Shown: in pieces, positions 668 to 21,630 of the stretch
Position numbering within the stretch: the stretch's first letter is position 1
Layout of the letters: the number at the start of each line of letters is the position of its first letter
Assembly (NCBI GenBank): GCA_009837885.1
Contig: VXSP01000015.1
Span: 14,065 to 78,064 of the forward strand
Length of the DNA: 64,000 nt
From: Holophagales bacterium
GTDB taxonomy: Bacteria; Acidobacteriota; Thermoanaerobaculia; Multivoradales; Multivoraceae
Reading direction: 5' to 3'
The notes under the pieces: model-generated
What the model saw: the letters and a program-made list of their open reading frames with translations, nothing else
Database searches by the model: none
Told to the model about the DNA's origin: nothing
Made by a program: the position numbers and the translations under genes

Positions 668-1519
668 ATGGAAGGTGCTCTCAGCGTTGGTCTCCTGTTC
701 CGCAACTTCAGGGGACGCATTCTCGTTACCTGGTTCCTCGTCCTGCTCGAGAACCTCCTCTGGGCCCTCGTGCCGCTGTTCATCGGCCGCGCCATCGACG
801 CCCTTCTGGAGCGCCGCCCGAGCGCCCTGTGGGAGGTGGCCGCGATCCTGTCGGCGCTGATCGTGGTCGCCACTGTCCGGCGCTTCTATGACACGCGTTG
901 CTACGGAACGATCCGCGTCCGCTTCGGAGGAGAACTCGTTCGCCGGTCGCAGGACGCGCCCGTCTCGCGGCTCAACGCGCGCCTCGACATGAGTCGGGAG
1001 ATGGTGGACTTCCTGGAGGGGCACGTACCCGGGGTGCTCACTGGCGTGGTGCAACTACTAGTGAGCATCGCCGTTCTCTTCAGCTTCGACCGCCGCCTGG
1101 GGCTGGCCGCCCTCGGCGCGCTGGCCGCGATCGTTCTGGTCTACGCGCTATTCCACGGCCGCTTCTACCGACTGAACGGCGAACTGAACGCGCAGACCGA
1201 ACTCCAGGTCTCGATCCTGGAGCAGCGCCGCCTGGAGTCGCTCGTGGGGCACCTGAGGAAGCTGCGCCGAAGCGAAGTCCGTCTGTCGGACACGGAGGCC
1301 GTCCTCTACGGCGGGATCTTCGCCGCCATGTTCGCCTTCGTCCTCGGCAATGTGTGGATCTCCGCGACGATCCCGATGATCACGGCGGGCGCGATCTTCG
1401 CGATTCTCAGCTACTCCTGGGAGTTCGTGGAGTCGAGTGTCGCGCTGCCGATCGCGCTTCAGGAATGGTCACGGCTCGGCGAGATCCGCGACCGGCTGAA
1501 TCGCGCGACGGAGGGATAG
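668..1519 (+). CDS. ABC exporter-type transmembrane domain protein with no ATPase domain (orphan TMD)
   Basis: 283 aa with multiple hydrophobic helices. It shows the ABC_membrane-like pattern (IGRAIDALL; GELVRRSQDAPVSRLNARLDMSREMVDFLEG) but lacks Walker A/B and the ABC signature. It resembles the N-terminal halves of the fused exporters at 9687-14245. Confidence 0.5.
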   Translation: MEGALSVGLLFRNFRGRILVTWFLVLLENLLWALVPLFIGRAIDALLERRPSALWEVAAILSALIVVATVRRFYDTRCYGTIRVRFGGELVRRSQDAPVSRLNARLDMSREMVDFLEGHVPGVLTGVVQLLVSIAVLFSFDRRLGLAALGALAAIVLVYALFHGRFYRLNGELNAQTELQVSILEQRRLESLVGHLRKLRRSEVRLSDTEAVLYGGIFAAMFAFVLGNVWISATIPMITAGAIFAILSYSWEFVESSVALPIALQEWSRLGEIRDRLNRATEG

Positions 1520-8430: not shown

Positions 8431-9660
8431 ATGGGCAGGGGGATCGGGCGCCTTCCGATCCCCCTGTTGTTTCTCTTGATGGCGACCGGAGCCGGCGGCA
8501 CTGAGTACGCCCTCGGCCCCGACTCCCTGCCCCAGGAAGGCGTCCCAACGGGCACGGTGGAGAAGCGCACCTGGGACGCCAGCCGCATCTACCCGGGCAC
8601 GACGCACGAGTACTGGGTCTACGTGCCGGCCCAGTACACAAACGCCGAACCCGCGCCCGTCATGGTTTTCCAGGACGGTCAGTTCTACGTGGAACCCGAG
8701 GGCCCCGTCAGGGCGCCGACCGTCTTCGACAACCTGATCCACAGGAGAGAGATGCCGGTGACCATCGGCGTCTTCATCAACCCCGGGATGAAGGAAATCC
8801 CCTGGGACCAGCGGAGCAACCAGTACACGCCGCTCGACGACACCTACGCCCGCTTCCTCCTGGAGGAGATCCTCCCGGAAGTCGGCAAGGACTACAGCCT
8901 GACGGGCGAGGCGGCGGGCCGGGCGATCGCCGGCATGAGCGACGGCGGGCTGGCCTCCTTCACCGTCGCTTGGCACCGTCCCGACGCGTTCAGCAAGGTC
9001 GTCAGCCACGTCGGCAGCTACACGCGGCTCGAGGGCGGTTCCCGGTACCCGTACCTGATTCGGAAGACCCGCGGGAACCCGAAGCCGATCCGCGTCTTCC
9101 TCCAGGACGGGGAGAACGACATCAACCTCGCGGAGGGCAACTGGGCGCTGGCCAACCTCCAGATGGACTCCGCCCTGATGTTCGCCCGCTACGACTACCG
9201 CTTCGAGATGGGCACGGGCGGCCACGATCTGAGGCACGGAGGCGCCATCTTCCCGGACACGCTGCGCTGGCTCTGGCGCGACTATCCGGGTGTCAAGGGC
9301 GCCGGGGAGCCGGCGGATCCCTCCGCGGTGGTCGGGGAGTGGGACGTTCTGACGAAAGTCCTCGGCGAGTTCCGTCGCAGCGTGCTGACGGTGTCCGGGC
9401 AGGACGGCGCGCTTGCCGCGACGCTCCACGACGAGGTGGACGGCGAGATGGAGGTCACTGCGGTCCGGTTCGAAGACGGCATCCTGAGCTACGAGTACGT
9501 AGCGTCCGGATCCCAGGTGAACTGGGGCAAGGGATCGGTGGGCAGGCTGAGCGCCTGGCTGCAGGTGCGGGGCGACACTTTCCGCGGCGCCCTGAGCCTC
9601 AATGTGCCCCCCGCGGGCGACTACTCGGTCGAGGGCCGCAGGAGAACAGCGGATCCCTAG
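8431..9660 (+). CDS. Secreted esterase family protein (PF00756 / CE1-like alpha/beta hydrolase)
   Basis: Signal peptide; the GxSxG nucleophile motif is GMSDGG. The pattern VMVFQDG...DDTYARFLLEEILPEV is typical of the putative-esterase family (enterochelin esterase/CE1). It lies 19 bp after the TonB receptor. Confidence 0.7.
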   Translation: MGRGIGRLPIPLLFLLMATGAGGTEYALGPDSLPQEGVPTGTVEKRTWDASRIYPGTTHEYWVYVPAQYTNAEPAPVMVFQDGQFYVEPEGPVRAPTVFDNLIHRREMPVTIGVFINPGMKEIPWDQRSNQYTPLDDTYARFLLEEILPEVGKDYSLTGEAAGRAIAGMSDGGLASFTVAWHRPDAFSKVVSHVGSYTRLEGGSRYPYLIRKTRGNPKPIRVFLQDGENDINLAEGNWALANLQMDSALMFARYDYRFEMGTGGHDLRHGGAIFPDTLRWLWRDYPGVKGAGEPADPSAVVGEWDVLTKVLGEFRRSVLTVSGQDGALAATLHDEVDGEMEVTAVRFEDGILSYEYVASGSQVNWGKGSVGRLSAWLQVRGDTFRGALSLNVPPAGDYSVEGRRRTADP

Positions 9661-9686: not shown

Positions 9687-12149
9687 GTGGACGATCTGAA
9701 GCAGGCGCGGGCCCTCCCCTTCTGGGGCGAGGGGGACACCCCTCCGGAGCCCACGAGCAAGGCCCCGGAGGAGCAGGGCTTTGTCGCCGTCTTCCGCATC
9801 TTCGTTCGGACCTGGCCCTACCTTTGGCCCCAGATCGTCGGCCGCTGGCGGGAGCTGCCGCGCGGGAGGGCCGCCGGCGGCGCCGCCGCCGCGGAGGGCG
9901 CCTGGAGCTTCCGTCACGTTCCGCCCCTGGTCACTGTCCTGACGGCGCTCGGCCCGCTCCTGTGGCTGGCGTCCCCGGGCACCGACTGGCGCCACGACCT
10001 CCTGCTGGCCGGCGCGGTCCTGATGACCGTCCTCGTGTGGACGCTCCTCTTCGTCAGGGGCCGTGCCTACCTCTGGTCATCCTTCGCGCTCGTGCTCGTC
10101 GGCACTGCGGCGTTTCTGTTCGCGCTGTTCGGCGTGGAGGGCCTCGCCGACACCCTCTACGTCGGACTCGTCGCGGCGGGATGCGTCTGCATCTGGGTGC
10201 TGCAGTACCGGGTGGACGGCGGCAAGCTGCGCTTCCGCATCCGGCTCGCCAGCCACCTCGTCTACTACTTCGTCCTGGTGTGGGCCTCGACCCTGCTGAC
10301 GATGGTGATCGCTCTCTTCTCCGTGGACCTGATCAGCCAGTCCATCCTGCAGGCCGAGCCGCTGACGCCGTTCCTGGCCGACTTCATCGGCCGGTCGGAA
10401 CTGGCCGGCGAGGCGCAGCCCGACGCCGGAGCGGAGTCCGCGGAACCCGATGCCGACGCCGCAGAACCGAACATCGACCTGGCGCCGCTGACCGCCGAGC
10501 AGCGGCACAGCCTGAAGTGGATCTACGCGGTCTTCATGGTCTTCGGCTGGTTCGCGCAGCTCCCGGTGATGATGCTGTTGCCCTACTACTACATCTTCAT
10601 CATGCAGCGCGTGAACCAGGACCTGCGGATGGCGCTGGTCGAGCGCTGGCTCGGGCTGTCCCTCCGCTACCACAGCGACCACAGGGTGGGCGATTCGGTC
10701 TACCGCATCTACCAGGACAGCGCCCAGGTCACGGCCGTCATCGGCAACGTGACGCAGTCGATGCAGATGCTGAGCACCTACGCGATCGGCGTCGTCTTCC
10801 TGGCCGCGCTCGATCCGATCCTCGGCGGCATGGCGCTCAGCATCGTCCTGCTTGCCGTCCTGTGGGGACGCTGGTTCTCGCCGCGGATGCGCGAGCGATC
10901 CCTCGCTGCCCGTGAGGCCAACTCTGACTTCACGTCGCGCGTGCAGGAGACGTTCGCTGCGATCCGGGTGATCAAGGCGTACGGCGCCGCGGACAGGGAG
11001 CAGGAGCGGCTCGAGCGGGATTCCGTGAGGGCGTTCAACGCGTCCTTCCGCGTCCGGTCGCTGATGGCGGTCGTCGGCATCGTCACTTTCTCGATCGCCG
11101 CCGCCGCGCTTCTGAGCGCGCAGTTCCTGATGGCGGTCTGGGCCAACGGGGAACGGGAGACCTTCGCGACGGCGCTCGTCGCCCTCGTCGGGCTCAGTTT
11201 CGTGACGTGGAACCTGGCCGCGTACAACTGGGCCCAGGAGCAGATCGGCGCGTCGAGCGTCTCCGTGCGGAACGTCGTCACACTGTGGTCGCAGGCCCAG
11301 GACATGGCGATGGGGCTCGACCGGTCCTTCGACATTCTCGACATCGAGCCCGACGTGAAGAACGCTCCCGACGCCGCGCCGATGGGACCCTTCCGGCGCC
11401 AGATCCGCTTTGACAACGTCGACTTCGCCTACGAACCGGACCGTCCCGTTCTGCGCGATGTGAGTCTCGCTGTCGAACCCGGCAGCATCACGGCGATCGT
11501 CGGCCCGACGGGATCGGGCAAGAGCACGCTGGTCAGTCTGCTGCTTCGGCTGTTCGATCCCGACTCCGGAACGGTTTCGATCGACGGCGTCGACCTCCGC
11601 GGGCTGGACGTGGACAGCCTGCGCGGCAACGTGTCCGTCGCCCTGCAGGAGAACGTCCTGTTCGGCATGTCGGTCCGCGACAACATCCGCTACGTCGTTC
11701 CCGACGCGGACGACGAGCGGGTGCTGGAGGCGGCCCGCGTCGCCTGCGTGGACGAGTACGTCGCCGGGCTGCCGGAAGGCCTGGACACGGTCCTGAGCGA
11801 CCGCGGCGGCAAGCTGTCGACGGGGCAGCGCCAGCGCCTCTCGATCGCCCGGGCGATCGTCAAGGACGCTCCGATCCTGATTCTCGACGAGCCCACGGCC
11901 GCGCTCGACGCCTACACCGAACACCGGGTGCTGGAGCGCCTGTCGGCGTGGGGCGAAGGCCGCGCGATCTTCCTGATCACGCACCGGATCTCGACGATTC
12001 AGCGGGCGGACCGGATCCTCTATCTCGACGGCGGCCGGATCGTCGAGAACGGGTCCCATGACGAACTCATGGCGGTGGACGGAGGGCGCTACCGGTCCTT
12101 CGTGGAGACCGAGGCGAGACTGTCGAGACGCGCCGGCGAGGCCGGTTGA
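9687..12149 (+). CDS. Fused ABC exporter (TMD plus NBD) with an extended N-terminal membrane region; first half of a heterodimeric pair
   Basis: The start is inferred at a GTG (V240 of the tracked ORF, 26 bp after the esterase stop); the exact start is uncertain. The C-terminal NBD has Walker A GPTGSGKST, signature LSTGQRQR, Walker B ILILDEPT and an H-loop. Its stop overlaps the next ABC start by 4 bp (ATGA). Confidence 0.75.
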   Translation: MDDLKQARALPFWGEGDTPPEPTSKAPEEQGFVAVFRIFVRTWPYLWPQIVGRWRELPRGRAAGGAAAAEGAWSFRHVPPLVTVLTALGPLLWLASPGTDWRHDLLLAGAVLMTVLVWTLLFVRGRAYLWSSFALVLVGTAAFLFALFGVEGLADTLYVGLVAAGCVCIWVLQYRVDGGKLRFRIRLASHLVYYFVLVWASTLLTMVIALFSVDLISQSILQAEPLTPFLADFIGRSELAGEAQPDAGAESAEPDADAAEPNIDLAPLTAEQRHSLKWIYAVFMVFGWFAQLPVMMLLPYYYIFIMQRVNQDLRMALVERWLGLSLRYHSDHRVGDSVYRIYQDSAQVTAVIGNVTQSMQMLSTYAIGVVFLAALDPILGGMALSIVLLAVLWGRWFSPRMRERSLAAREANSDFTSRVQETFAAIRVIKAYGAADREQERLERDSVRAFNASFRVRSLMAVVGIVTFSIAAAALLSAQFLMAVWANGERETFATALVALVGLSFVTWNLAAYNWAQEQIGASSVSVRNVVTLWSQAQDMAMGLDRSFDILDIEPDVKNAPDAAPMGPFRRQIRFDNVDFAYEPDRPVLRDVSLAVEPGSITAIVGPTGSGKSTLVSLLLRLFDPDSGTVSIDGVDLRGLDVDSLRGNVSVALQENVLFGMSVRDNIRYVVPDADDERVLEAARVACVDEYVAGLPEGLDTVLSDRGGKLSTGQRQRLSIARAIVKDAPILILDEPTAALDAYTEHRVLERLSAWGEGRAIFLITHRISTIQRADRILYLDGGRIVENGSHDELMAVDGGRYRSFVETEARLSRRAGEAG

Positions 12150-14245
12150 TGGCCGAAGCAGCCCGAGCGTCGCGACCGTCGCTGCGGGAGCACGAAAAGC
12201 AACTCGACCGCGCGGCCAGCGTTCTCGACCTGGGCACGGATATCGGGTTCCGGGAGGTCCTGCGCATCTTCGCGCGGGTCGTCTCGACCTTCCGGCTGTT
12301 CAAGGCGCGGATCGCGACGAAGCTCGCCTTCATCACGGTGGAGCTCGTCTTTCGGCTGATGGTCGCGCCCTGGCCGGGCAAGGTCGTCGTCGACCACGTC
12401 ATCCTGGGCATGCCCATTAGCGACGCGTCGGGCTTTCCTGCCTTCCTGGCACCCGCCGTGCTGCTGCTGGACGGCATGGGGCCGGTGGAGATGATGCTCT
12501 GGGTGTTCCTGCTCGGGGTGTTCATGGTGACGGTCTTCGGGTTCACCACGAGCCGGGGCGCGGGCAGGTCTCCCAGCGGAGCGCCCACAGGGGCCTCGGC
12601 GGGCTCTTCCGGGGGCGCCACGGCCCTCACGCCGCAGGGCCTCGGCACCCTGGCCCAGGGCCACGACATCGCCACGCAGACGGAGAATCAGGCCAACCTC
12701 GGTTCGGGCCTGATGGCGGGCATCCTCGGGTTCATCGACTTCCGGGTGCATCTTCGCCTTTCGCAGTCGATGAACCACTTCCTCCGAACCCGGGTAGCCG
12801 GGAAGCTGCGGTCGCTGCCGATGACGACCCTGGACGACCTGCGGATCGGCGACAGCGTCTACCGCGTCCTGTACGACACCACCAGCGCCAACATGCTGCT
12901 GCACGGCATCGCGCTGGGGCTCTACTCCGGCCTGCTCGGCGTGGTGATCACCCTCTACATCATGTTCACGTACTTCGGCGCCGCACCGGAGGTCATCGTG
13001 CTGGGCATGCTCGCCCTTCCGATCGTGTTCCTGATCGAACTCCCCTTTGCCCGCATGGCGCGGCGTCGAGGCCAGGCCAGCCGCGCCTCCGGCTCGAGCA
13101 CGACGAGCAACATCGAAGAGGGGATGAGCAACGTTCTCGCCGTTCAGAGCCTCGGCGGTAACGAGCGGGAAGCGCGGCGATTCCGGCGGGCGAGTGCGGA
13201 GTCGTTCAAGCGTTTCCGCACGGAGTGGTTCCTGGTGCTCACGGTCCGGCAGGCCTTCAGTCTGGCGCTGATGCTCGGCCAGGTCCTGTTCTTCATCGTG
13301 ATGGCGGGCCGCGTGATCGACGGCACGTTCACCGCCGGCGACTACTTCGTCCTCACGTACTACTACTTCGTCCTCAGCGCGACGTTCGGCGCCTGGGGCT
13401 TTGTGTACACGGAGTGGCAGGGCTACATCGCCGGCATGCGCCGGGTGTTCTTCCTGATGGGCCTGCCGGAAGAGAAGACGCGGGACGGCGTCGAACTGGA
13501 CAGGATCAAGCGCGGCGTCGAGATGAGGGGCGTCGGCCTGACCTACCCGGACGGCCGCCGCGCGCTCCGCAACGTCGATCTGGAAGCCCGCATCGGCGAG
13601 ATCGTCGCGTTCGTCGGCCCGACCGGGGCCGGCAAGACCAGCCTCGCGTACATGGTGCCGGCCTTCGTTCAGGCGACCGAGGGGACGGTAGAAGTCGACG
13701 GCGTCGATCTGAAGGACGTGGCGGTGGAAAGCCTCAGGAAGCAGGTGTCGTACGTCTTCCAGGAAACGCAGCTCTTCTCCGATTCGATCCTCGAGAACAT
13801 CCGCTACGGCAACCAGGCCGCGACGGAGGCGCAGGTCGAGCGTGCCGCGCGCGTTGCCGGCGCCCACGACTTCATCGCCGCGCTGCCGGACGGCTACCGG
13901 ACCAACCTCGGCACCGTGACCAGCAAGCTGTCGGTCGGACAGAAGCAGCGCATCGCGATCGCCCGGGGGCTCCTCCGGGAAGCGCGCATCCTGATCCTGG
14001 ACGAACCGACCTCAGCGCTCGACCCGGAGACCGAGGCCTACCTGGTCGACGCGCTGCACGAAGCGGCGAAGGACCGGCTCGTCATCATCATCGCTCACCG
14101 TCTGTCGACGATCGCCAACGCCGATCGGATCTACTTCCTGGAGGACGGCGAGGTGCGTGAATCCGGCTCGCATGAGGAGTTGATGGCAACGCCGGACGGG
14201 CGGTACCGCGAGTATGTGTCGCTGCAGGCTGGTTCACAGGCTTGA
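12146..14245 (+). CDS. Fused ABC exporter (TMD plus NBD); second half of the heterodimeric pair
   Basis: 699 aa. Walker A GPTGAGKTS, signature LSVGQKQR, Walker B ILILDEPT. It is translationally coupled to the upstream exporter. It is ~80% identical in protein to the exporter at 17778-19730. Confidence 0.85.
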   Translation: MMAEAARASRPSLREHEKQLDRAASVLDLGTDIGFREVLRIFARVVSTFRLFKARIATKLAFITVELVFRLMVAPWPGKVVVDHVILGMPISDASGFPAFLAPAVLLLDGMGPVEMMLWVFLLGVFMVTVFGFTTSRGAGRSPSGAPTGASAGSSGGATALTPQGLGTLAQGHDIATQTENQANLGSGLMAGILGFIDFRVHLRLSQSMNHFLRTRVAGKLRSLPMTTLDDLRIGDSVYRVLYDTTSANMLLHGIALGLYSGLLGVVITLYIMFTYFGAAPEVIVLGMLALPIVFLIELPFARMARRRGQASRASGSSTTSNIEEGMSNVLAVQSLGGNEREARRFRRASAESFKRFRTEWFLVLTVRQAFSLALMLGQVLFFIVMAGRVIDGTFTAGDYFVLTYYYFVLSATFGAWGFVYTEWQGYIAGMRRVFFLMGLPEEKTRDGVELDRIKRGVEMRGVGLTYPDGRRALRNVDLEARIGEIVAFVGPTGAGKTSLAYMVPAFVQATEGTVEVDGVDLKDVAVESLRKQVSYVFQETQLFSDSILENIRYGNQAATEAQVERAARVAGAHDFIAALPDGYRTNLGTVTSKLSVGQKQRIAIARGLLREARILILDEPTSALDPETEAYLVDALHEAAKDRLVIIIAHRLSTIANADRIYFLEDGEVRESGSHEELMATPDGRYREYVSLQAGSQA

Positions 14246-15266
14246 GGGGCACACCGGGAGGGTCGAGGCCCTCACGGTGACGCCGGACGGCCGGCGCGTC
14301 GTCTCCGCGTCGGCGGACGCTACGCTGCGGGTTTGGGACCTCGAATCGGGGCGGGCCCTGCACACGCTCGAGGGTCACCGCGCCGGTGTTTGGTGTGTCG
14401 CCGTAACGCCGGACGGCAAGCGAGCCGTATCCGGTTCCTTCGACGCTACGTTGCGGGTCTGGGATCTTGACTCCGGCCGTACGCTCCATGTGCTCACGGG
14501 ACACGCGACGGAGGTCTACTCGGTTGCGGTGACGCCCGATGGCACGCGGGCCGTCTCCTCCTCCGCGGATGCCACCCTGCGGGTCTGGGACTTCGGGACG
14601 GGCCGGGAAGTGCACGTGTTGGAGGGGCACACGGACGACGTCAAGTCCTTCGCCCTGACTGCCGACGGCACTCGTGTCGTCTCCGTCTCCTGGGACAGGA
14701 CAGTCCGAGTGTGGGACTTGGAGGCCGGACTGGAGTTGCGCACCCTCGAAGGACACACCGGTGCGGTCCACGCCGTGGCCGTCGCTCCGGACGGCAGGCG
14801 AGCCATCTCCGCGTCCGGCGACCGGACGCTGCGCGTCTGGAATCTCGACTCGGGCCGCGCATTGCATGCGCTCGAAGGACACACGGCAGAGGTCTACGGC
14901 GTGGCAGTGGCACCGGACGGCGCAACAGCAGTCTCCGCGTCTGCCGACACAACACTCCGCGGCTGGAATCTCCAAACGGGCCGTGGCCGCCACGTACTTG
15001 AGGGACACACCGAACCGGCTTTCTCCGTGACTTTGACGCCGAACGGCCGGCGCGCCGTCTCCACCTCCCCGGACCGGACCTTGCGCTTATGGAACCTCGA
15101 ATCAGGGCAGCAGCTCGCCGCCTTCGAGTGCAACGACTGTGTACGCCCTTGCGCCGTCTCGCTCGACGGCCAGACCGTCGTCGCCGGTGACGCAAGCGGC
15201 ATCGTCTATGTCGTTAGCGCCGGCACAGTTCGTCGAGACGCTCGGTCAGCGTGCGGACGACTCTGA
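14214..15266 (+). CDS. WD40-repeat beta-propeller protein (8 highly regular repeats, no other domain)
   Basis: Eight tandem ~42-aa units of the form LEGHTxxVxxVAVTPDGxRAVSxSxDxTLRVWDLxSGRxLHx. Its start overlaps the ABC exporter stop by 32 bp. Confidence 0.8.
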   Translation: MCRCRLVHRLEGHTGRVEALTVTPDGRRVVSASADATLRVWDLESGRALHTLEGHRAGVWCVAVTPDGKRAVSGSFDATLRVWDLDSGRTLHVLTGHATEVYSVAVTPDGTRAVSSSADATLRVWDFGTGREVHVLEGHTDDVKSFALTADGTRVVSVSWDRTVRVWDLEAGLELRTLEGHTGAVHAVAVAPDGRRAISASGDRTLRVWNLDSGRALHALEGHTAEVYGVAVAPDGATAVSASADTTLRGWNLQTGRGRHVLEGHTEPAFSVTLTPNGRRAVSTSPDRTLRLWNLESGQQLAAFECNDCVRPCAVSLDGQTVVAGDASGIVYVVSAGTVRRDARSACGRL

Positions 15267-15398
15267 GGAGTTCCACGATCGCAGCCTCCGGAGACGTGAC
15301 TTGAGGCCCCGTTCCGGCTCCGAGCTTGTCCTCGATCCGGGCGAGCTGTTCGGTGATCATGCGGAGTTCGGGGTCGTGGAGCTTCATCACATACGTCC

Positions 15399-17195
15399 TT
15401 AGTAGGGATTCGAAGGCGTGATCTTCCAGGCCTTTAGGGAGTGCACGCGGGTGTCGCCGCCAGCGGAAAAGACCCTAACGCCGATGCTGTCCCGGCGAGA
15501 AGGATAGATGCGCCGCGCGATCGCCTGGCGGCGATTGGCGAAGACCTCGACGACCGACTTGTCGACGAAGACTCTGAGCTTCAGTCGCTCGCCGGGCTTC
15601 AGTTCGAACGGAGCTGCCTCGACGGCCTTCGGCGTGTCGTCAGGACCCGATCTGCGCGTGTCGATTTTGAGCAGCTTCTCTTCGGCGTCGTAGAAGATGG
15701 ACGTTTCCTCTTGGCCGTCGGGCGAGACGCACACCTTGACGCCGAAGTGCGATGCCTTCGTGCTTTGCAGCTCGACCTCTAGTTCCAGGCTGTTGCCGCT
15801 GACGCCTTCTACGAGCACTTCCTCGCCGGCCGGCACGACGAACGGCCCCATCCGCACCTCGCCGTAGCGCAGCGCCTCGATCTCCTCCGGCACGTCCATG
15901 CGGAGCAGCCCGTCATCTCCGAGCGACAGCACCCGCGGCAGGCTCAGCGTGCCGGACCAGCCGTGCTTCGTTCGCGCTCCGAAGAGAGGCTCGTCGAGGA
16001 TCCAGGCCCACATGATGCGGCGGCCCCGGTCGTCGACCAGGCTTTCCGGAGCGAAGAACGAGTTGTCGACCCAGCTCATCCGGGCGTGAGACCCGGGATG
16101 GAACTGTTCGTTCCTCCATTCCCCGACGTAGTAGCGGCAGCCGAGCCGATGGCTGATGCAGAGGAGCACGTGCTTGCCGCCGAGTTCGAAGAGATCCGGG
16201 CAGGACACGTCTTCGTCCAGCGACACGCCTTCGACACCGTGAGCGAAGAGGTCGCCGGCGTACTTCCATTCGCCGTCGAGTGCAGCCGACGTCGCAACCG
16301 CCGGGCGTTTGCCGCCGAAGATCGCGTAGTAGGTGTCGCCTTCGAGCCACCCGAAGGGGTCCCATGACCGGTACCTGCCGTGGTGTTCGTCGCCCTCCCG
16401 CGTCTCCGGCGTGATCGGGTTCGAGTCGAGCTTCCTCCAGTCGTTCAGGTCCTCGTCCAGGGCAACCGCCATCGCGTTGCCCAGGCCATGCTGGTGGTAG
16501 CAGATCGTCGGCAGACCTTCCTTGTTCAGGAAGCAGTTGCCGCTGTACATGCCGTCGAGCAGGCCGGTGGGGTGGTGGCGCCAGTGGAAGAGGTCCGCGC
16601 TCGACATGTGGCCCCAGTGGTCCGACCGCTCGCCCAGCCGCGCGTCCTGGAAGATGTAGAACAGGTGGTAGCGGCCCTTCCAGTGGATCGCCCCGTTCGG
16701 GTCGAACGGCATCGCCACGCCTTCCGGAATCACGAAGTGGTAGCCGGGCCGTGCCGGGTCGCTCAGGATTCGCTCGCGGAGTTGGCGCGCGTTCTCGGCG
16801 AGGCGGTTAGCCTTTCGGGAACCGACGACGGACACGCAGCGCCAGGCGCCGTCCGATTCCCTCGTCATCCTGAACTCGAAGAAGCCGCCCCCGGTCGGCG
16901 AACGAAGGACGACCGGATCGACGGCGGCAGTGTCTCCGTCGAACACCACTTCGGCGTCGTCGAGGACGAAGCGCTTCTCCCGATCGGTCGGTCGGTCGAC
17001 CTGCTTCCGCAGATACTCCCGGAGATCGGCCTTGGTCGTGCCCGAACTGCTTCGCCACGTTTCCGAGAAGAAGTCGACTTGCCCGTCGATGTCACCGACC
17101 CTGGTCGCCTTGTCGTAAGCACGCAGAGCGGCCAGGACGTCGTCGATTGCCTTGGTCGAGGACGTAGTCGCGCGTTTACTCATCGTCAGAGCCAC
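15399..17195 (-). CDS. Glycoside hydrolase family 32 (beta-fructofuranosidase/levanase-like) with an N-terminal NTF2/SnoaL-like extension
   Basis: GH32 catalytic motifs are present: HFVIPEGVAMPFDPNGAIHWKGRYHLFY (the NDPNG-type block), RSWDPFGW (RDP-type) and VSCPDLFEL (EC-type). The ~140-aa N-terminal extension is predicted as alpha+beta. Confidence 0.8.
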   Translation of the reverse strand: MALTMSKRATTSSTKAIDDVLAALRAYDKATRVGDIDGQVDFFSETWRSSSGTTKADLREYLRKQVDRPTDREKRFVLDDAEVVFDGDTAAVDPVVLRSPTGGGFFEFRMTRESDGAWRCVSVVGSRKANRLAENARQLRERILSDPARPGYHFVIPEGVAMPFDPNGAIHWKGRYHLFYIFQDARLGERSDHWGHMSSADLFHWRHHPTGLLDGMYSGNCFLNKEGLPTICYHQHGLGNAMAVALDEDLNDWRKLDSNPITPETREGDEHHGRYRSWDPFGWLEGDTYYAIFGGKRPAVATSAALDGEWKYAGDLFAHGVEGVSLDEDVSCPDLFELGGKHVLLCISHRLGCRYYVGEWRNEQFHPGSHARMSWVDNSFFAPESLVDDRGRRIMWAWILDEPLFGARTKHGWSGTLSLPRVLSLGDDGLLRMDVPEEIEALRYGEVRMGPFVVPAGEEVLVEGVSGNSLELEVELQSTKASHFGVKVCVSPDGQEETSIFYDAEEKLLKIDTRRSGPDDTPKAVEAAPFELKPGERLKLRVFVDKSVVEVFANRRQAIARRIYPSRRDSIGVRVFSAGGDTRVHSLKAWKITPSNPY

Positions 17196-17249
17196 TAGCG
17201 AGTCGTCCTAGGTTCCCCATGCACGTTGTCGCCGTGGTAGACGTGGGTC

Positions 17250-17501
17250 GTGGACGGGATGACGACAATCCTGGTGGGAGATCGCGGCAGAGTCGTGATT
17301 CCGGCGGCGGTTCGTCGTAGAGCCGGTCTGTCGGCAGGAACGGTGCTGTGTCTGCTCGAGACGCCGGGCGGGCTGGTCTTGATGAAGCGCGACCAACTCC
17401 GGGACCATGTCCGCGCCGAACTCGCCGGACTCGATCTCGTCTCTGAGCTGCTCGCGGAACGCCGCTTTGCAGCCGACGCCGAGGACGCCACCTCAGGCTA
17501 G
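17250..17501 (+). CDS. AbrB/MazE/SpoVT-family antitoxin-like DNA-binding protein (solitary)
   Basis: 83 aa. The looped-hinge helix motif is GRVVIPAAVRRRAGLSAGTVLCLLETPGGLVLMK. No toxin gene lies downstream; its 3' end overlaps the convergent brnA-like gene by 4 bp. Confidence 0.55.
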   Translation: MDGMTTILVGDRGRVVIPAAVRRRAGLSAGTVLCLLETPGGLVLMKRDQLRDHVRAELAGLDLVSELLAERRFAADAEDATSG

Positions 17502-17743
17502 CCGCCTGCAGGCGAGCCGAGTGACTCCAGGTGCCTCGCGATGAGCATCTTGATTAGAGACTGCCGAGGCACTCCCAGCCTCGAGGCCTCGCGATCGAGG
17601 GACTCGATCATCCAGATCGGAAAATCCACGTTGACGCGTCGTTGGTCGTGGCCGGGTCGACGCGCCTTCGTCAGTTCGAGGTACTTCATGATGCTCTCGC
17701 CGGCGTCGAACTTCCGGTCGAGTTCCTTCGCCTTAGCCTTCAT
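17498..17743 (-). CDS. brnA: BrnA-family (CopG/RHH-like) antitoxin with no BrnT partner
   Basis: 81 aa: KAKELDRKFDAGESIMKYLELTKARRPG...RVNVDFPIWMIESLDREASRLGVPRQSLIKMLIARHL matches the BrnA consensus. There is no room for a brnT gene between it and the ABC exporter stop at 17778. Confidence 0.65.
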   Translation of the reverse strand: MKAKAKELDRKFDAGESIMKYLELTKARRPGHDQRRVNVDFPIWMIESLDREASRLGVPRQSLIKMLIARHLESLGSPAGG

Positions 17744-17777
17744 AGAGTGCGACCTCCTCTCTCCGGAGCACGGAAGG

Positions 17778-19730
17778 CTAACCTGCCCCGGCCTGCAGTG
17801 TGGCGTACCTCCGGTATCGCCCGTCGGGTATCGCCATCAGCTCCTCGTGAGTTCCCCGTTCCTTGATCGCTCCTTCCTCGAGGAAGTAGATCCGGTCCGC
17901 GTTGGCGATCGTCGACAGGCGGTGGGCGATGATGATGACCAGCCTGTCCTTCGCCGCTTCGTGCAGGGCGTCGACCAGGTAGGCCTCGGTTTCCGGGTCG
18001 AGCGCGGAGGTCGGTTCGTCGAGGATCAGGATGCGCGCGTCGCGCAGGAGGCCCCGGGCGATCGCGATGCGCTGCTTCTGGCCGACGGACAGCTTGCTGG
18101 TCACGGTACCGAGGTTGGTCCGGTAGCCGTCGGGCAGGGCGGTGATGAAGTCGTGCGCGCCGGCGACGTGCGCGGCACGCTCGACTTGCGCCTCGGTCGC
18201 GTCCGTGTTCCCGTAGCGGATGTTCTCGAGGATCGAGTCGGAGAACAGTTGCGTCTCCTGGAAGACGTAGGAGACCTGATCGCGGAGGCTGTCGACCGAC
18301 ACGTCCTTCAGGTCGACGCCGTCGATCGTCACCGTACCTTCGGTGGGCTGCACGAAGGCCGGCACCATGTAGGCGAGGCTCGTCTTGCCCGCGCCGGTCG
18401 GGCCGACGAATGCGACGATCTCGCCCAGGCGGGCCTCGAGGTTGATGCCGCTCAGCGCCCGGCGTCCGTCGGGATACGTCAGCCCTACGTTCCTCATCTC
18501 GACGCCGCGGCTGATCCGGGGCAGCCCGACGCCTTCGCTCGTCTTCTCCGATGGCAGGTCCATCAGGAAGAACACCCGGCGCAGTCCGGCGATGTTGTCC
18601 TGCAGAACCGGGTAGATGAAGCCCATCCCGCTGAACGTCGCGCTCAGGACGAAGAAGTAGTAGTTGAGGACGAAGTAGTCGCCGGCCGTGAACGTGCCGT
18701 CGATCACGCGTCCGGCGATGACGACGAAGAACAGGACCTGGCTCAGCAGGAAGGCCAGGCTGCCGAATTGTTGGTAGGTCAGCTTGAGCAGCGACTCGAT
18801 GCGAAAGCGCCTGAAGGACTCCTCGCTGGCCTTCCTGAATCGCTGGCCTTCCCGCTCGTTTCCACCGAGGCTCTGCACGGCGAGCACGTTGCTCATGCCC
18901 TCTTCGATGTTCGCCGTCGTCGCGGCGCCCGAGGCGCGGCTGGCCTGGCTTCTGCGCCGTGCCATCCGCGCGAATGGACCGACGAAGATGAGCATGATCG
19001 GCAGCGACAGGGCGGCCAGCAGGATGACCTCTGGAGCGTCGCCGAAGTACGTGTACATCATCATTGCGCTGATCGTGATGCCGAGCGCGTGGGAGTAGAA
19101 CTCGAGGCCCACCTCGTAGAGAACGCGGCTGACACTCGTCGTGTCGTAGAGGACGCGGTAGATGCTGTCGCCGATCCGCTGGTCGTCCAGGGTCGTCATC
19201 GGCAGGCGCTTGATCCGCCCGGCGAGTTTCGTCCTGAGCAGGTGGTTCATCGACTGCGTCAGGCGCAGGTGCACCCGGAAGTCGAGGAGTCCGAGAATGC
19301 CGCCCATCAGGCCGGAGCCCCGGTTGGCCTCGTTCTCGGTCCGGGTGGCCGTGTCGTGCCCCTGGGCCAGGGTGCCGTGCCCCTGCTGGAGGAGGACGGT
19401 GGCGCCGCCCGACGAGGCCGCGGATGCTCCGGTGGGCATCCCGGTCGCGGACCTGACGGTGCCCCGGTTCGTCGTGAACCCGAACACGGTCACCATGAAG
19501 ACGCCGAGGACGAGTACCCACGCCATGATCTCCAGCGGGCTCCTGCCGGCCAGGAGCAGCACGAACGGGCTTAGGTATGAGGGGAACCCGGCCGCGTCCA
19601 CGATGGGCATGCCGAGGATGACGTGGTCGACGACGACCTTGCCCGGCCACGGCGCGACGAGCAGCCGGAACGCCATCTCCGCCGTCAGCAAACCGAACTT
19701 CGCGGCGACCCGCGCCTTGAAGAGGCGCAT
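17778..19730 (-). CDS. Fused ABC exporter (TMD plus NBD), inverted paralog of 12146-14245; the annotated ATG start truncates a conserved N-terminal region
   Basis: 650 aa from the ATG at 19728-19730. It has Walker A, signature and Walker B motifs. A further ~45 codons upstream (19731-19865) are conserved with the paralog N-terminus (LREGEKALDRSASALDTQTDIPFREVLRIFGRALAY versus LREHEKQLDRAASVLDLGTDIGFREVLRIFARVVSTF) but contain no ATG, GTG or TTG. Confidence 0.8.
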   Translation of the reverse strand: MRLFKARVAAKFGLLTAEMAFRLLVAPWPGKVVVDHVILGMPIVDAAGFPSYLSPFVLLLAGRSPLEIMAWVLVLGVFMVTVFGFTTNRGTVRSATGMPTGASAASSGGATVLLQQGHGTLAQGHDTATRTENEANRGSGLMGGILGLLDFRVHLRLTQSMNHLLRTKLAGRIKRLPMTTLDDQRIGDSIYRVLYDTTSVSRVLYEVGLEFYSHALGITISAMMMYTYFGDAPEVILLAALSLPIMLIFVGPFARMARRRSQASRASGAATTANIEEGMSNVLAVQSLGGNEREGQRFRKASEESFRRFRIESLLKLTYQQFGSLAFLLSQVLFFVVIAGRVIDGTFTAGDYFVLNYYFFVLSATFSGMGFIYPVLQDNIAGLRRVFFLMDLPSEKTSEGVGLPRISRGVEMRNVGLTYPDGRRALSGINLEARLGEIVAFVGPTGAGKTSLAYMVPAFVQPTEGTVTIDGVDLKDVSVDSLRDQVSYVFQETQLFSDSILENIRYGNTDATEAQVERAAHVAGAHDFITALPDGYRTNLGTVTSKLSVGQKQRIAIARGLLRDARILILDEPTSALDPETEAYLVDALHEAAKDRLVIIIAHRLSTIANADRIYFLEEGAIKERGTHEELMAIPDGRYRRYATLQAGAG

Positions 19731-19992
19731 GTAGGCGAGGGCACGCCCGAAGATGCGCAGGACTTCCCGGAACGGGATGTCGGTCTGTGTGTCGAGCGCG
19801 CTCGCCGAACGATCGAGCGCCTTCTCTCCCTCTCGGAGCCTTGCCCGCCAGGACTGCGGGCGGCGCGGGAGTCGCGGGGCGGCTGCCGGCTGCGTCAGAT
19901 CGACTCCGAGAGCAGTGCGCCGAGCAACAGGAGTGCGGTTTGCTGTCTCATGGTGTGCGTCCCGTGAGTCATTAGAGTTGCACGATTCCAGG

Positions 19993-21630
19993 ATGTCTAT
20001 TGTTCCGCTGCAGTCGCCGTCGAGATTGAGCGTATCCGCGCCGTCGCTTCTGCTTGCGGGGCTACTGACCTTCGTCGTTGCCTGCGCGCCCGAGAGTCGC
20101 GCCGATCGGCTGGAGTCCGCCGGCCTGAAGGCGCGCCCGCCCGCGGTCGGCGGTCCGCGCTACGGCGGCCACTTGCGGGTGGGCCACTCTCTGGAGCCCA
20201 CGTCGCTCGACGCGATTCTGGGCCGGTCGGGCGCCGACGCCTACTTCTGGCGGCAGATCTTCGATCAACTGGTCGACGCGGACCCGCAGCTCAATCCGCG
20301 GCCGGAGACCTCGCTCGCGACGTCCTGGGAGATCGCGACGGATCCCGACTCGATCACCTTCCACCTGCGGGAGGGCGTCGTCTTCCATGACGGCACTCCC
20401 TTCAATGCCCATGCGGTCAAGGCCAACATCGAGCGGATTCTGGACCCCGCGACCGTCGCGACGCCGCGCGCATCGCTGGCGGTGATCGAGGGGGTCGAGG
20501 TGATCGACGAGTACACGGTGCGCTTCGACCTGGCCGGGCCTTGGGGCGCGGGTTTCGGCATGCTGGCCGACCGTGGCGGTGTGATGAGCTCGCCGGCCGC
20601 GATCGAGGCGCTCGGCGCCGACTACGGCTGGAGCCCATCGGGAACCGGGCCGTTCCGGGTGAAGGAAGTGATCACCGGCACCCTCGTGCATTTCGTGCGG
20701 AACGAGGACTACTGGGGCCGCGACGAGCACGGCAACCAGCTTCCGTATCTCGACGAGGTCACGGTCCGGGTGATCCGCGACGAGACCGTCCGCGCCGCGG
20801 CCCTGCGCACGGGCGAGATCGACGTCACCTACCTGCCCTACAAGGACGTTTCGACCTTCGAGCGGGACGAGCGGGTCCGGATCGAGACGATGCCGGGAGG
20901 AGGCATTGCGCTGACGCTGGTCTTCAATGTCGACAAGCCGCCGCTCGACGACGTGAACGTCCGGCTGGCGATCGCCCACGCGGTCGACCCGACCGTGATC
21001 AACAGGGCGATCTTCTTCGACCGCGCGATCGAGGCCGACGCGGGCATGTGGCCGGTGGGTTCCTGGGTCCACGAGCCGGACGGCGAACGGCCCACCTACG
21101 ACGTCGACAAGGCCCGGCAGTACCTCGCGAAGGCGGGGCGGGAGAGCGGCCTGGAGTTCACGGCGGTCACCCACCACAACCCGCTGCTCGTTTCGAGCGC
21201 CGAGGTGGTGAGGGCGATGCTGAAGAAGATCGGCATCCACATGGACATCGACGTGCTGTCCAGCGGCCCGGCGACCGAGAGGTTCAACCACGGCCAGGAA
21301 TACCCGATGTTCATCACCTCCTGGAGCCGCTATCCCGAGCCGGACTGGATGGCGTCGCTGGCCTACAAGAGCGACGGGTACTACAACCCGGGCAACGTGC
21401 TGCGGCCGGACGTCGACGAGCTGGTGGAGCTGGGCGCCTCGCTCTACGACAACGAGGCCCGCAAGCAGGTCTACATCGAGCTCAACCGGACCGTGCTAGG
21501 CGAGGCCTGGTTCACGCCGCTGCTCTACGGCGTGACGTTCGCGGCGGCACCCGGGAGGGTGCGCAACCTCGACCAGTTGATGGGCTGGGACGGCAAGATG
21601 AACTTCGCGACGATCTGGCTGGAGGAGTAG
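19993..21630 (+). CDS. ABC transporter substrate-binding lipoprotein, family 5 (peptide/nickel/oligosaccharide, DppA/OppA-like)
   Basis: The start is at M81 of the tracked ORF (MSIVPLQSPSRLSVSAPSLLLAGLLTFVVAC, lipoprotein signal). It shows typical SBP_bac_5 length and composition and is followed by two permease genes. Confidence 0.8.
   Translation: MSIVPLQSPSRLSVSAPSLLLAGLLTFVVACAPESRADRLESAGLKARPPAVGGPRYGGHLRVGHSLEPTSLDAILGRSGADAYFWRQIFDQLVDADPQLNPRPETSLATSWEIATDPDSITFHLREGVVFHDGTPFNAHAVKANIERILDPATVATPRASLAVIEGVEVIDEYTVRFDLAGPWGAGFGMLADRGGVMSSPAAIEALGADYGWSPSGTGPFRVKEVITGTLVHFVRNEDYWGRDEHGNQLPYLDEVTVRVIRDETVRAAALRTGEIDVTYLPYKDVSTFERDERVRIETMPGGGIALTLVFNVDKPPLDDVNVRLAIAHAVDPTVINRAIFFDRAIEADAGMWPVGSWVHEPDGERPTYDVDKARQYLAKAGRESGLEFTAVTHHNPLLVSSAEVVRAMLKKIGIHMDIDVLSSGPATERFNHGQEYPMFITSWSRYPEPDWMASLAYKSDGYYNPGNVLRPDVDELVELGASLYDNEARKQVYIELNRTVLGEAWFTPLLYGVTFAAAPGRVRNLDQLMGWDGKMNFATIWLEE

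Follow-up and report, generated by a model that had tools for sequence, protein, structure and literature searches.

Exporter C, one of three ABC half-transporters encoded in the 64,000-nucleotide stretch of DNA analysed here (the window), which probably derives from a sponge-symbiont Acidobacterium, very probably begins its translation at a CUG codon, to judge from the conservation of its reading frame among relatives. We propose that C is a 706-residue half-transporter that would be initiated at CUG 19898–19896, five bases past a GGAG Shine–Dalgarno sequence, and that, because this CUG overlaps the UGA of an upstream ORF (CUGA), terminating ribosomes would be delivered onto it. The CUG would be poorly used by free ribosomes, and the delivered ribosomes would reinitiate there. 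In the window, the in-frame loss of a sulfatase gene has left a 25-codon mini-ORF in which the start region of the sulfatase and the stop that overlaps the CUG are retained. The full statement, a CUG start of C plus termination–reinitiation coupling, is one that we place slightly on the probable side.

Three half-transporters and the start-less N-terminus of exporter C

The features needed for this section are as follows.
9687..12149, plus strand: exporter A, an 820-aa ABC half-transporter with a putative GTG start
12146/12149–14245, plus strand: exporter B, a 698-aa half-transporter, counting from ATG 12149
17778..19898, minus strand: exporter C at its proposed full length, 706 codons from CTG 19898–19896 to the stop at 17780–17778
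19728..19730, minus strand: ATG chosen by gene callers, giving a truncated 650/651-aa annotation
19731..19895, minus strand: the 55 N-terminal codons of C omitted by current gene calls
20160..20162, minus strand: TAG, the first in-frame stop upstream of C
668..1519, plus strand: membrane-domain-only protein, outside the start-codon feature
19993..21630, plus strand: divergent SBP_bac_5 solute-binding-protein gene of an Opp/Dpp-type importer operon

The sequence-only reading of this DNA had described three ABC exporters, and this was borne out by Pfam. As is required of half-transporters, ABC_membrane and ABC_tran were both matched by A, B and C (PF00664/PF00005 scores of 89.8/114.4, 60.8/108.5 and 73.5/109.9 bits, respectively; gathering cut-offs of 28 and 25 bits). 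Walker A, the ABC signature, Walker B with its catalytic Glu and the H-loop His are present in all three, read from the translations as GPTGAGKTS, LSVGQKQR, ILILDEPTSALD and AHRLST in B and C, and as GPTGSGKST, LSTGQRQR, ILILDEPTAALD and THRIST in A. Among proteins of solved structure, ABCB1 and MsbA are the closest in sequence. The exporters are ordinary MsbA/ABCB-like half-transporters, sharing with other exporters of this type IV fold the two domains and the Walker A, signature and Walker B motifs, and differing from them by an insertion in B and C and by extra hydrophobic segments in A. The exporter subfamily and substrate are not assignable because the NCBIfam scores are far under the curated cut-offs: the MsbA equivalog TIGR02203 gave 339 bits for C, 325 for B and 320 for A (cut-off 602), and no other NCBIfam model scored at or above its cut-off for any of the three. 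A long N-terminal membrane extension had been claimed for all three proteins. This holds for A alone, in which a hydropathy scan placed about five hydrophobic segments, about four of them counted as extra, after an elbow-like motif and ahead of the canonical membrane domain (ABC_membrane at residues 279–508); in B and C there is instead an insertion of about 100 residues following the first transmembrane helix.

Exporter A lies downstream of an esterase-like ORF that ends at 9660. A and B (33% protein identity) are distinct half-transporter genes that sit side by side on one strand, the stop of A overlapping the start of B, and their gene arrangement makes a heterodimeric ABC exporter, of which TM287/288 is an MsbA/ABCB-like (type IV fold) example, a reasonable reading. 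The ATGA overlap that had been described between them is a misread motif: the junction reads GGTTGATGG, with the TGA stop of A at 12147–12149 lying within TTGATG, such that B may start at ATG 12149 (1-nt overlap with A) or at TTG 12146 (4-nt overlap). One degenerate ATP site is typical of heterodimeric ABC exporters but not required, and neither A nor B has one, both retaining the Walker B Glu and the H-loop His. The ORF at 668–1519, previously called a relative consisting of the transmembrane domain only, does encode a membrane-domain-only protein (PF13748, ABC_membrane_3, E=2.5e-56), but its relation to the exporters is merely distant.

Exporter C, for which the mechanical ORF is 17778–19730 on the minus strand, is a paralogue of B, at 76% identity rather than the approximately 80% given earlier, gapless over 688 residues when the upstream-extended C translation was aligned. 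Two further observations of the sequence-only reading were reproduced, namely that similarity to B extends beyond the ATG of C (by about 40 residues) and that no ATG, GTG or TTG occurs in the C frame from the in-frame stop up to ATG 19730. The stop itself had been misplaced, in that the TAG at 19997–19999 belongs to another frame, that of the mini-ORF described below; the in-frame TAG is at 20162–20160, and there are therefore 87 open codons ahead of the CTG. The start of the divergent SBP_bac_5 gene, at 19993, was assigned from a hydrophobic signal-like N-terminus. The pairwise B/C dN/dS comparison that had been proposed was run and gave 0.36 over the 47 codons ahead of the ATG and 0.27 over the remaining gene. 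Residues E25, D29, D36, D40, I41, R44 and R52 of C, all of them ahead of the annotated start, are invariant among 43 family members.

The CTG codon among relatives

Two features lie at the proposed start.
19896..19898, minus strand: putative CUG start codon of C, CTG being invariant in 35/35 loci of CTG type
19904..19907, minus strand: Shine–Dalgarno-like GGAG, 5 nt upstream of the CTG; sequence ctcGGAGtcgatCTG

The 35 CTG-type loci are the window, 20 species-representative genome loci (six of them from records titled 'chromosome: 1'), 3 JGI contigs and 11 ENA contigs. The CTG is at a constant position, 38 codons before the residues TDIPF (35 in two loci), and a canonical in-frame start between the in-frame stop and TDIPF is wholly absent in 14 of 21 loci. 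The GGAG is kept by most orthologues, with the variants GGAAGGG, GGAAGAG and GGGG, and AAGGAAG in locus L011. In L011 there is also an in-frame TGA six codons ahead of the CTG, so that the start can lie no further upstream than AGG AAG ACC GAC GAT CTG; within these six codons, CTG is the sole first-position variant of ATG. Of the alternatives put forward earlier, a non-canonical start is supported, as the same start-less conserved N-terminus with an invariant CTG recurs in 20 genomes and 14 further contigs.

Selection on the upstream codons was evaluated with 21 distinct orthologues. The dN/dS of the CTG-to-ATG segment was 0.31 in the C frame, compared with 1.5 and 2.5 when read in the other two; within the C frame it was 0.39 for codons 1–19 after the CTG and 0.27 for codons 20–55. 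Variable sites in the 55-codon segment numbered 16, 12 and 30 at the three codon positions, and neither stops nor frameshifts were found in these codons among the 21 orthologues, the sole indel being of 9 nt. The dN/dS value and the intact frame contradict a recent loss of the N-terminus, which had been another of the alternatives, and the lack of canonical starts together with frame-specific purifying selection from the CTG onward is what non-canonical initiation predicts. All 31 protein clusters of the C clade are called at 651–652 aa, and sister sequences at 696–714 aa.

A C to T or C to A change in the CTG would be synonymous in the upstream ORF and would give TTG or ATG, and it is found in 0 of 35 loci. 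A metagenome DNA-pattern scan for another codon at this position returned three true matches, all CTG, and seven chance matches. Invariance of the C was considered as a stand-alone sign of selection and ruled out, 32% of four-fold degenerate sites also being invariant. Starts at an in-frame ATC (19778, 19754) or at a second CTG (19760) were likewise rejected, since conserved, selected codons lie upstream of each. The CTG type does not come out as monophyletic: a neighbour-joining tree puts ATG-type sequences (e.g., L015) inside CTG-type groups, and from this pattern the 5′ ends of C genes have probably recombined.

Several scans were made around the feature and across the window. An RNA hairpin masking the ribosome-binding site was rejected because minimum-free-energy folds of 20 orthologous segments disagree; the candidate pairings were GGAGUCG with a downstream CGACUCC and CUGCCGG with CCGGCAG, a 9-nt deletion has removed the hairpin 3′ arm in L014/L025, and no compensatory changes in the arms were noticed by eye in the DNA alignment. 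A promoter and terminator consensus scan of 19700–20200 found nothing. A crude scan of the window gave seven CTGA junctions between long open frames and no sign of CTG starts as a general habit: the best other candidate (minus strand, 47502) is spurious, as a real MFS transporter gene occupies the opposite strand there, and at the 644 junction an ATG follows eight codons further on. As to an unusual initiator tRNA, a tRNA scan found no tRNA genes in the window.

Loss of the sulfatase gene and the mini-ORF

At CTGA (19898–19895), the CTG shares bases with the TGA stop of an ORF that lies upstream on the same strand and that in the window is the following.
19895..19972, minus strand: mini-ORF MTHGTHTMRQQTALLLLGALLSESI*, 25 codons, with its TGA at 19897–19895 overlapping the CTG

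In most relatives the upstream ORF is an intact sulfatase gene of about 525 codons that ends on the TGA of the CTGA, its product being about 525 aa long with a signal-like N-terminus. The CTGA overlap with the sulfatase gene or its remnant is found in 34 of the 35 CTG loci, L011 being the exception. The mini-ORF, which has a second ATG at 19951, joins the opening 22 codons of the deleted sulfatase gene to its final 3 codons and stop: when compared to the L032 sulfatase, the 5′ part of the region agrees with the start at 160 of 162 bases, and the 3′ part corresponds to the end. The deletion is in frame; its length is 1548 nt by comparison with L032 and 1515 nt by comparison with L002.

Sulfatase deletions have occurred at least six times independently, with six different junctions on different branches of the C gene tree. 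After four of them (window; L010/17/18; L012/13/76/91/92; L090), an ORF with a canonical start ends on the junction TGA. The deletion in L011 left a 3-codon ORF that ends 15 nt ahead of the CTG in C's own frame, and that in L009 fused a conserved TTG, located just upstream of the sulfatase start (ATG in the window), in frame to PAAAPRLP, by which a canonical start for the long form was regained. The sole ATG-start lineage with a deleted sulfatase, L020/L024, has a stop in the remnant frame and GGAT in place of GGAG. The upstream remnants are 18–76 codons long and unrelated in sequence among deletion lineages, and only the mini-ORF of the window clearly retains the native sulfatase start region.

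The presence of an ORF in 4/4 junction-keeping lineages, and its absence from the ATG-type control, is suggestive of a dependence of C translation on the upstream ORF. For any particular TGA in 67% G+C DNA, the chance that an open frame with ATG, GTG or TTG ends on it is roughly estimated at 0.4–0.5 per lineage, and four retained ORFs of four are only suggestive because such frames are fairly likely by chance. In bacterial control by upstream ORFs and leader peptides there is likewise a short ORF directly upstream that overlaps the main start; here, the mini-ORF sequence is not conserved among deletion lineages and the end point alone is kept, which would fit ribosome delivery better than a sensing peptide.

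Probable initiation at the CUG and its proposed coupling to the upstream ORF

Both overlapping stop and start codons and rare non-AUG starts are familiar in themselves, the AUU of infC being one such rare non-canonical bacterial start codon. Exporter C resembles the latter cases in having a near-cognate codon after a Shine–Dalgarno sequence and no canonical alternative, and differs from them in its comparative basis (35 loci, >20 species and frame-specific purifying selection) and in that its CTG is embedded in a stop/start overlap. Sporadic CUG starts have been reported in E. coli O157:H7 (PMC5960689, PMC7103648). Gene pairs with termination–reinitiation at ATGA or TGATG (Huber et al. 2019, PMC6728339; 2025 review, PMC12548453) share with C and its upstream ORF the same-strand arrangement, a 4-nt overlap (NTGA, here CTGA) and a Shine–Dalgarno-like motif inside the upstream 3′ end, and the A/B junction of the window, TTGATG, is a textbook case. 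The difference is that the restart codon at C is in every locus CTG, not ATG, GTG or TTG, and that the upstream partner in the window is a 25-codon vestige, not a functional gene. A text search of PMC6728339 and PMC12548453 found nothing relevant on CUG/CTG or other non-canonical start codons.

We infer that the CUG is decoded as an initiator and that its use depends on translation of the upstream ORF. In E. coli, CUG is strongly discriminated against as a de novo initiator (PMC11497404), and an AUGA-type coupling reporter lost downstream translation when its restart codon was changed to AUA (PMC9955659); because of the latter result, it is not established that reinitiating ribosomes are less demanding about the codon. 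A stricter form of the proposal, which we hold tentatively and as the less probable side of the question, is that the CUG is an obligately coupled start, usable essentially only after termination on the overlapping UGA, and that selection would hence keep a vestigial 'starter' mini-ORF at each sulfatase loss.

Of the competing explanations, the one that deserves most weight, although we think it unlikely, is that the CUG is a start used by free ribosomes through ordinary Shine–Dalgarno initiation, with the overlap an inherited packing and the mini-ORF a neutral scar. The GGAG is at a good 5-nt spacing, open frames come easily in G+C-rich DNA, deletions that spare the Shine–Dalgarno sequence and CTG would survive in any frame, and in L011 the CTG is used without an overlapping stop, which is also a point against coupling. 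Against this explanation are the discrimination against CUG in de novo initiation noted above, the lack in all 35 loci of the one-base synonymous change to TTG or ATG, and the ORF ending on CTGA in each junction-keeping deletion lineage, when the sole ATG-start lineage with a deleted sulfatase keeps none.

That the functional C is instead the 650-aa form from ATG 19730, with the upstream similarity a relic, is very improbable. This ATG is the sole canonical start and is picked by all gene callers, but the purifying selection, third-position excess and unbroken frame of the 55 upstream codons are not those of a relic, no Shine–Dalgarno-like motif is visible upstream of the ATG, and the Met itself (M57) is replaced by Leu or Phe elsewhere in the family. 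Truncation at M57 would also deprive C of invariant residues and of the first 14 residues of the AlphaFold-predicted helix 43–80, which carries the first transmembrane segment, and in L009 it is the long form for which a canonical start was regained. Still less credible is a fusion protein made by frameshifting or stop-codon readthrough from the upstream ORF, an idea prompted by the coincidence of the end of that ORF with the start of C's conserved frame: there is no slippery heptamer at GGAGTCGATCTGA (no X XXY YYZ motif in ...CTCTCGGAGTCGATCTGACG), the upstream partners range from a sulfatase of about 525 aa to the unrelated remnants, and the short ORF of L011 lies in the frame of C itself and stops 15 nt short of the CTG. 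Loss of the start codon through a base-call or assembly error, suggested earlier and conceivable for a short-read metagenome scaffold such as the window, has a negligible probability, being contradicted by the identical feature in 34 other loci from independent assemblies, the six 'chromosome: 1' records included.

Initiation of C at the conserved CTG, which is the most likely start, has the consequence that the database proteins are too short: at least 31 protein clusters would lack 56 residues, some of them invariant and some belonging to the first helix, a systematic annotation error, and gene callers restricted to ATG, GTG and TTG conceal such cases. A CTGA overlap that is found in more than 20 species and that outlasts repeated loss of the upstream gene by way of a mini-ORF has no mention in the coupling literature searched. 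If our proposal is true, it would offer a simple, testable system for whether reinitiation relaxes start-codon choice in bacteria, the components being no more than a CUG, a Shine–Dalgarno sequence and a 25-codon ORF. Obligate coupling, if true, would make it a natural and evolutionarily replicated case of termination–reinitiation licensing a non-canonical start in bacteria, and would mean that a dead gene can leave behind a stub that still functions in translation. For the biology of the symbionts, the pattern of deletions suggests that the sulfatase is dispensable, whereas expression of the exporter behind it is not.

The three exporters and their neighbours

The sequence-only reading had claimed three ABC exporters, and each was found to carry Pfam ABC_membrane and ABC_tran domains:

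Exporter A, 9687-12149 (+), 820 aa
Exporter B, 12146/12149-14245 (+), 698 aa
Exporter C, mechanical ORF, 17778-19730 (-), 650 aa

Exporters A and B are 33% identical, and their junction, reported as an ATGA overlap, instead reads GGTTGATGG, still a classic overlap, with the TGA of A at 12147-12149 and the start of B at ATG 12149 or TTG 12146. They resemble a heterodimeric pair in which both ATP sites are apparently canonical. An adjacent partner gene is absent beside C, and C and B lie a few kilobases apart on one contig in eight genomes (coordinates compared by eye); we infer that C is a candidate alternative partner for A or a candidate homodimer. The exporters are ordinary MsbA/ABCB-like half-transporters; ABCB1 and MsbA are the best solved relatives by sequence, with the match beginning at residue ~213, and no NCBIfam profile reached its cut-off.

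In residues 1-280 of A (9687-10520), about five hydrophobic segments (residues 78-221) come after an elbow-like motif, FVAVFRIFVRTWPYLW, and the canonical ABC_membrane match starts only at residue 279, which suggests that about four extra membrane helices are inserted near the N-terminus. Past their first transmembrane helix, exporters B and C share an insertion of ~100 residues (residues about 84-190; B 12400-12720 (+), C 19330-19650 (-)). Within it, a helix at C residues 121-139 is strongly hydrophobic, and a stretch rich in Gly, Ser and Thr is disordered in AlphaFold (pLDDT below 50 at 142-189), despite which the invariant residues LAQGHD.AT.TEN are present.

Directly after B is a seven-bladed beta-propeller WD40 protein (14214-15266 (+), 350 aa), the longest ORF of which begins 32 nt ahead of the B stop codon. 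Between C and a GH32 glycoside hydrolase (15399-17195) are two small ORFs (17198-17743 (-)), one with a weak CopG-antitoxin match; because gene tables for this region and for the orthologous loci L091 and L092 also list MazE-antitoxin-like and BrnT-toxin-like genes, it has the appearance of a variable insertion site for toxin-antitoxin genes.

The N-terminus of exporter C

The window (67% G+C) is identical to part of the ENA metagenome scaffold ENGE20-1_SAMN12347678_METAG-scaffold_188. Metagenome-assembled genomes carrying the labels Holophagales, Thermoanaerobaculia or Candidatus Multivorans are its nearest relatives; all belong to Acidobacteriota and presumably come from marine-sponge microbiome studies, as their isolate names suggest. 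The DNA compared comprised 70 loci from species-representative genomes, 3 true matches from a metagenome pattern scan and 11 places in ENA assemblies; 35 loci, including the window, share a common CTG arrangement, 6 of them in records titled 'chromosome: 1'.

The central observation made earlier, a conserved N-terminus of C that lacks a start codon, holds, with several details needing correction. The alignment with B extends ~40 residues beyond ATG 19730, and the upstream-extended C is 76% identical to B over 688 residues with zero gaps; pairwise dN/dS, the check proposed with that observation, was 0.36 for the upstream 47 codons and 0.27 for the remainder. ATG, GTG and TTG are indeed absent in the frame of C from ATG 19730 to the in-frame stop, but that stop is the TAG at 20162-20160, the TAG at 19997-19999 being in another frame. 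A protein search gave 31 clusters 87-97% identical to C, every one called at 651-652 aa and so shortened identically by gene callers, and the next relatives are called at 696-714 aa with the N-terminus MSQAGSHAP...LREGEK.

The peptide LT(Q/T/N)PAAAPRLP(G/R)R..(S/T)WR.RLREGEK..DRSAS.LD..TDIPFREVLRIF is conserved across the 35 loci, with an in-frame CTG 38 codons before TDIPF (35 codons in two loci with a 9-nt deletion). From this CTG to Met57 (ATG 19730, codon 57 counted from the CTG), ATG, GTG and TTG are absent in the 35 loci, save chance ones far upstream, out of frame, in the neighbouring gene; 14 of 21 loci lack any canonical in-frame start after the in-frame stop. Selection, estimated from 21 distinct orthologous sequences, is frame-specific in this segment, which contains no stops or frameshifts in any of the 21 and has 16, 12 and 30 variable sites at codon positions 1, 2 and 3.

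Table. dN/dS estimates for gene C
55 codons after the CTG, frame of C: 0.31
Codons 1-19, frame of C: 0.39
Codons 20-55, frame of C: 0.27
Segment after the CTG, second frame: 1.5
Segment after the CTG, third frame: 2.5
Remainder of gene C: 0.16

In a 43-sequence family alignment, E25, D29, D36, D40, I41, R44 and R52, all upstream of Met57, are invariant. With a mean pLDDT of 68.8, the AlphaFold model of C is moderate in quality; residues 43-80 form a long helix predicted with confidence (pLDDT 75-85), which we read as a probable elbow helix plus first transmembrane helix, by analogy with the arrangement in MsbA-type exporters.

The open frame of C stops after 420 codons in L032 and after 676 in L077, which may be pseudogenes or assembly errors of those contigs. 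In L015, L019-L021, L024 and L041 the N-terminus is instead of an ATG type (MSQAGSHAP...); it starts ~30 nt past the sulfatase stop, and an indel of ~20 nt sets it apart from the CTG type. Its distribution is at odds with the gene tree, L015 being nested among CTG-type sequences, which suggests recombination at the 5′ end of C.

The CTG and the upstream sulfatase

The local sequence in most loci is GGAG-TCGAT-CTG-AC, in which the final two bases of the CTG and the next A form the TGA stop of an upstream same-strand ORF (a CTGA junction):

GGAG, 19907-19904 (-), five bases upstream of the CTG
CTG, 19898-19896 (-), in-frame, ahead of the conserved peptide
25-codon mini-ORF MTHGTHTMRQQTALLLLGALLSESI, 19972-19895 (-), sulfatase remnant

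In most relatives the upstream ORF is intact (about 525-540 codons, ending ...LYDLEEDPFEYENLASDPGRREQIEELSRRLRAGWRAALPESI and stop) and resembles a sulfatase (NCBIfam matches below cut-offs; Pfam Sulfatase match in gene tables), with a divergent SBP_bac_5 importer operon upstream of it. In the window the sulfatase is missing and the operon adjoins C. Codons 1-22 of the mini-ORF come from the start of the sulfatase itself, with its hydrophobic, signal-like N-terminus (the L032 sulfatase starts MTHGTHTMRQQTGLLLLGALLSVPC..., with 160/162 bases identical to the window), and its final three codons and stop are the sulfatase end. The deletion measures 1548 nt against L032 and 1515 nt against L002, both multiples of three, with breakpoints within CTCNCGG microhomology.

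Six distinct deletion junctions, spread over separate branches of the gene tree of C and each beside sulfatase-bearing relatives, point to at least six independent losses between the importer operon and C.

Table. Sulfatase deletions (window 19895-19993; L009-L013, L017, L018, L076, L090-L092)
(a) Window: 25-codon ORF
(b) L010/L017/L018: 15-22 codons, starting at a TTG in the place of the sulfatase start and finishing with ...LLES(L/P) at the junction TGA
(c) L012/L013/L076/L091/L092: 18- or 31-codon ORF with a new ATG, ending ...AGWRAALPESI and stop
(d) L090: 76-codon internal sulfatase fragment, in frame with ESI and stop
(e) L011: three-codon TTG ACT GGC TGA in the frame of C, then AAGGAAG; CTG 15 nt downstream
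(f) L009: CTG itself removed; conserved TTG fused in frame to PAAAPRLP

The L009 TTG, just upstream of the sulfatase start and ATG in the window, gives the long protein a canonical start. The long N-terminus of C is preserved in every deletion lineage, and the sulfatase appears to be dispensable, with the downstream gene retained.

The SD lies within GGAGTCG, a perfect reverse complement of CGACTCC 27 nt downstream (19866-19907 (-)), which encodes Arg-Leu of PRLP, and sulfatase-type loci have a second pair, CTGCCGG/CCGGCAG. A conserved hairpin masking the SD was not demonstrable, as folding predictions were inconsistent and the 3′ arm is missing in two loci. Another CTGA junction at 644 (+), between an ORF ending at 647 and an ABC_membrane_3 gene, has an ATG eight codons downstream (668) and is probably coincidental.

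Initiation of exporter C

The best-supported reading is that translation of C would begin at the CUG. Conservation, frame-specific selection, the invariant residues and the lack of any SD-like sequence upstream of ATG 19730 argue that the segment before Met57 is translated, with the CTG as sole credible initiator. A truncated protein as the real product is contradicted, since a Met57 start loses the seven invariant residues and the first 14 residues of the predicted helix. The sequence-only reading had offered a non-canonical start, a lost N-terminus or a sequencing error; the start-less, conserved N-terminus with its in-frame CTG bears out the first, the dN/dS of 0.31 with intact frames contradicts loss, and recurrence of the arrangement in 35 loci contradicts error. 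A frameshift or readthrough fusion with the upstream ORF is also contradicted. In L011 an in-frame TGA six codons ahead of the CTG confines the start to AGG AAG ACC GAC GAT CTG or later.

With less certainty, we propose that ribosomes terminating on the upstream ORF would reinitiate at the overlapping CUG, where the SD would hold them. The chief rival is CUG initiation driven by the SD alone, in which case the mini-ORF would be a neutral scar. An ORF with a canonical start ends on the junction TGA in 4/4 deletion lineages that retain CTGA; such open frames are common in G+C-rich DNA (estimated at roughly 0.4-0.5 per lineage), so this is only suggestive, and the native start is clearly kept only in the window's mini-ORF. 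L011 shows that the stop/start overlap is not strictly required. L020/L024, where C has an ATG start and the sulfatase is deleted, serve as a natural control: a TAG interrupts the remnant frame eight codons ahead of the TGA, and GGAT stands in place of GGAG. Since 32% of four-fold degenerate sites are likewise invariant, the constant C of the CTG carries no significance by itself. Initiation in E. coli discriminates against CUG (PMC11497404), and in a coupling reporter in that species AUA could not substitute for AUG in an AUGA-type junction (PMC9955659).

Relative to four-nucleotide overlap coupling (PMC6728339, PMC12548453), the junction of C would be a variant whose restart codon is non-canonical; nothing relevant came from term searches of these two papers for CUG/CTG and non-canonical start codons. 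Full-text literature searches found neither a conserved CTGA case nor a vestigial ORF retained for coupling described. The missing start of C is real and more interesting than a sequencing glitch: on comparative grounds, it is probably a case of non-canonical initiation, combined with a proposed translational coupling.
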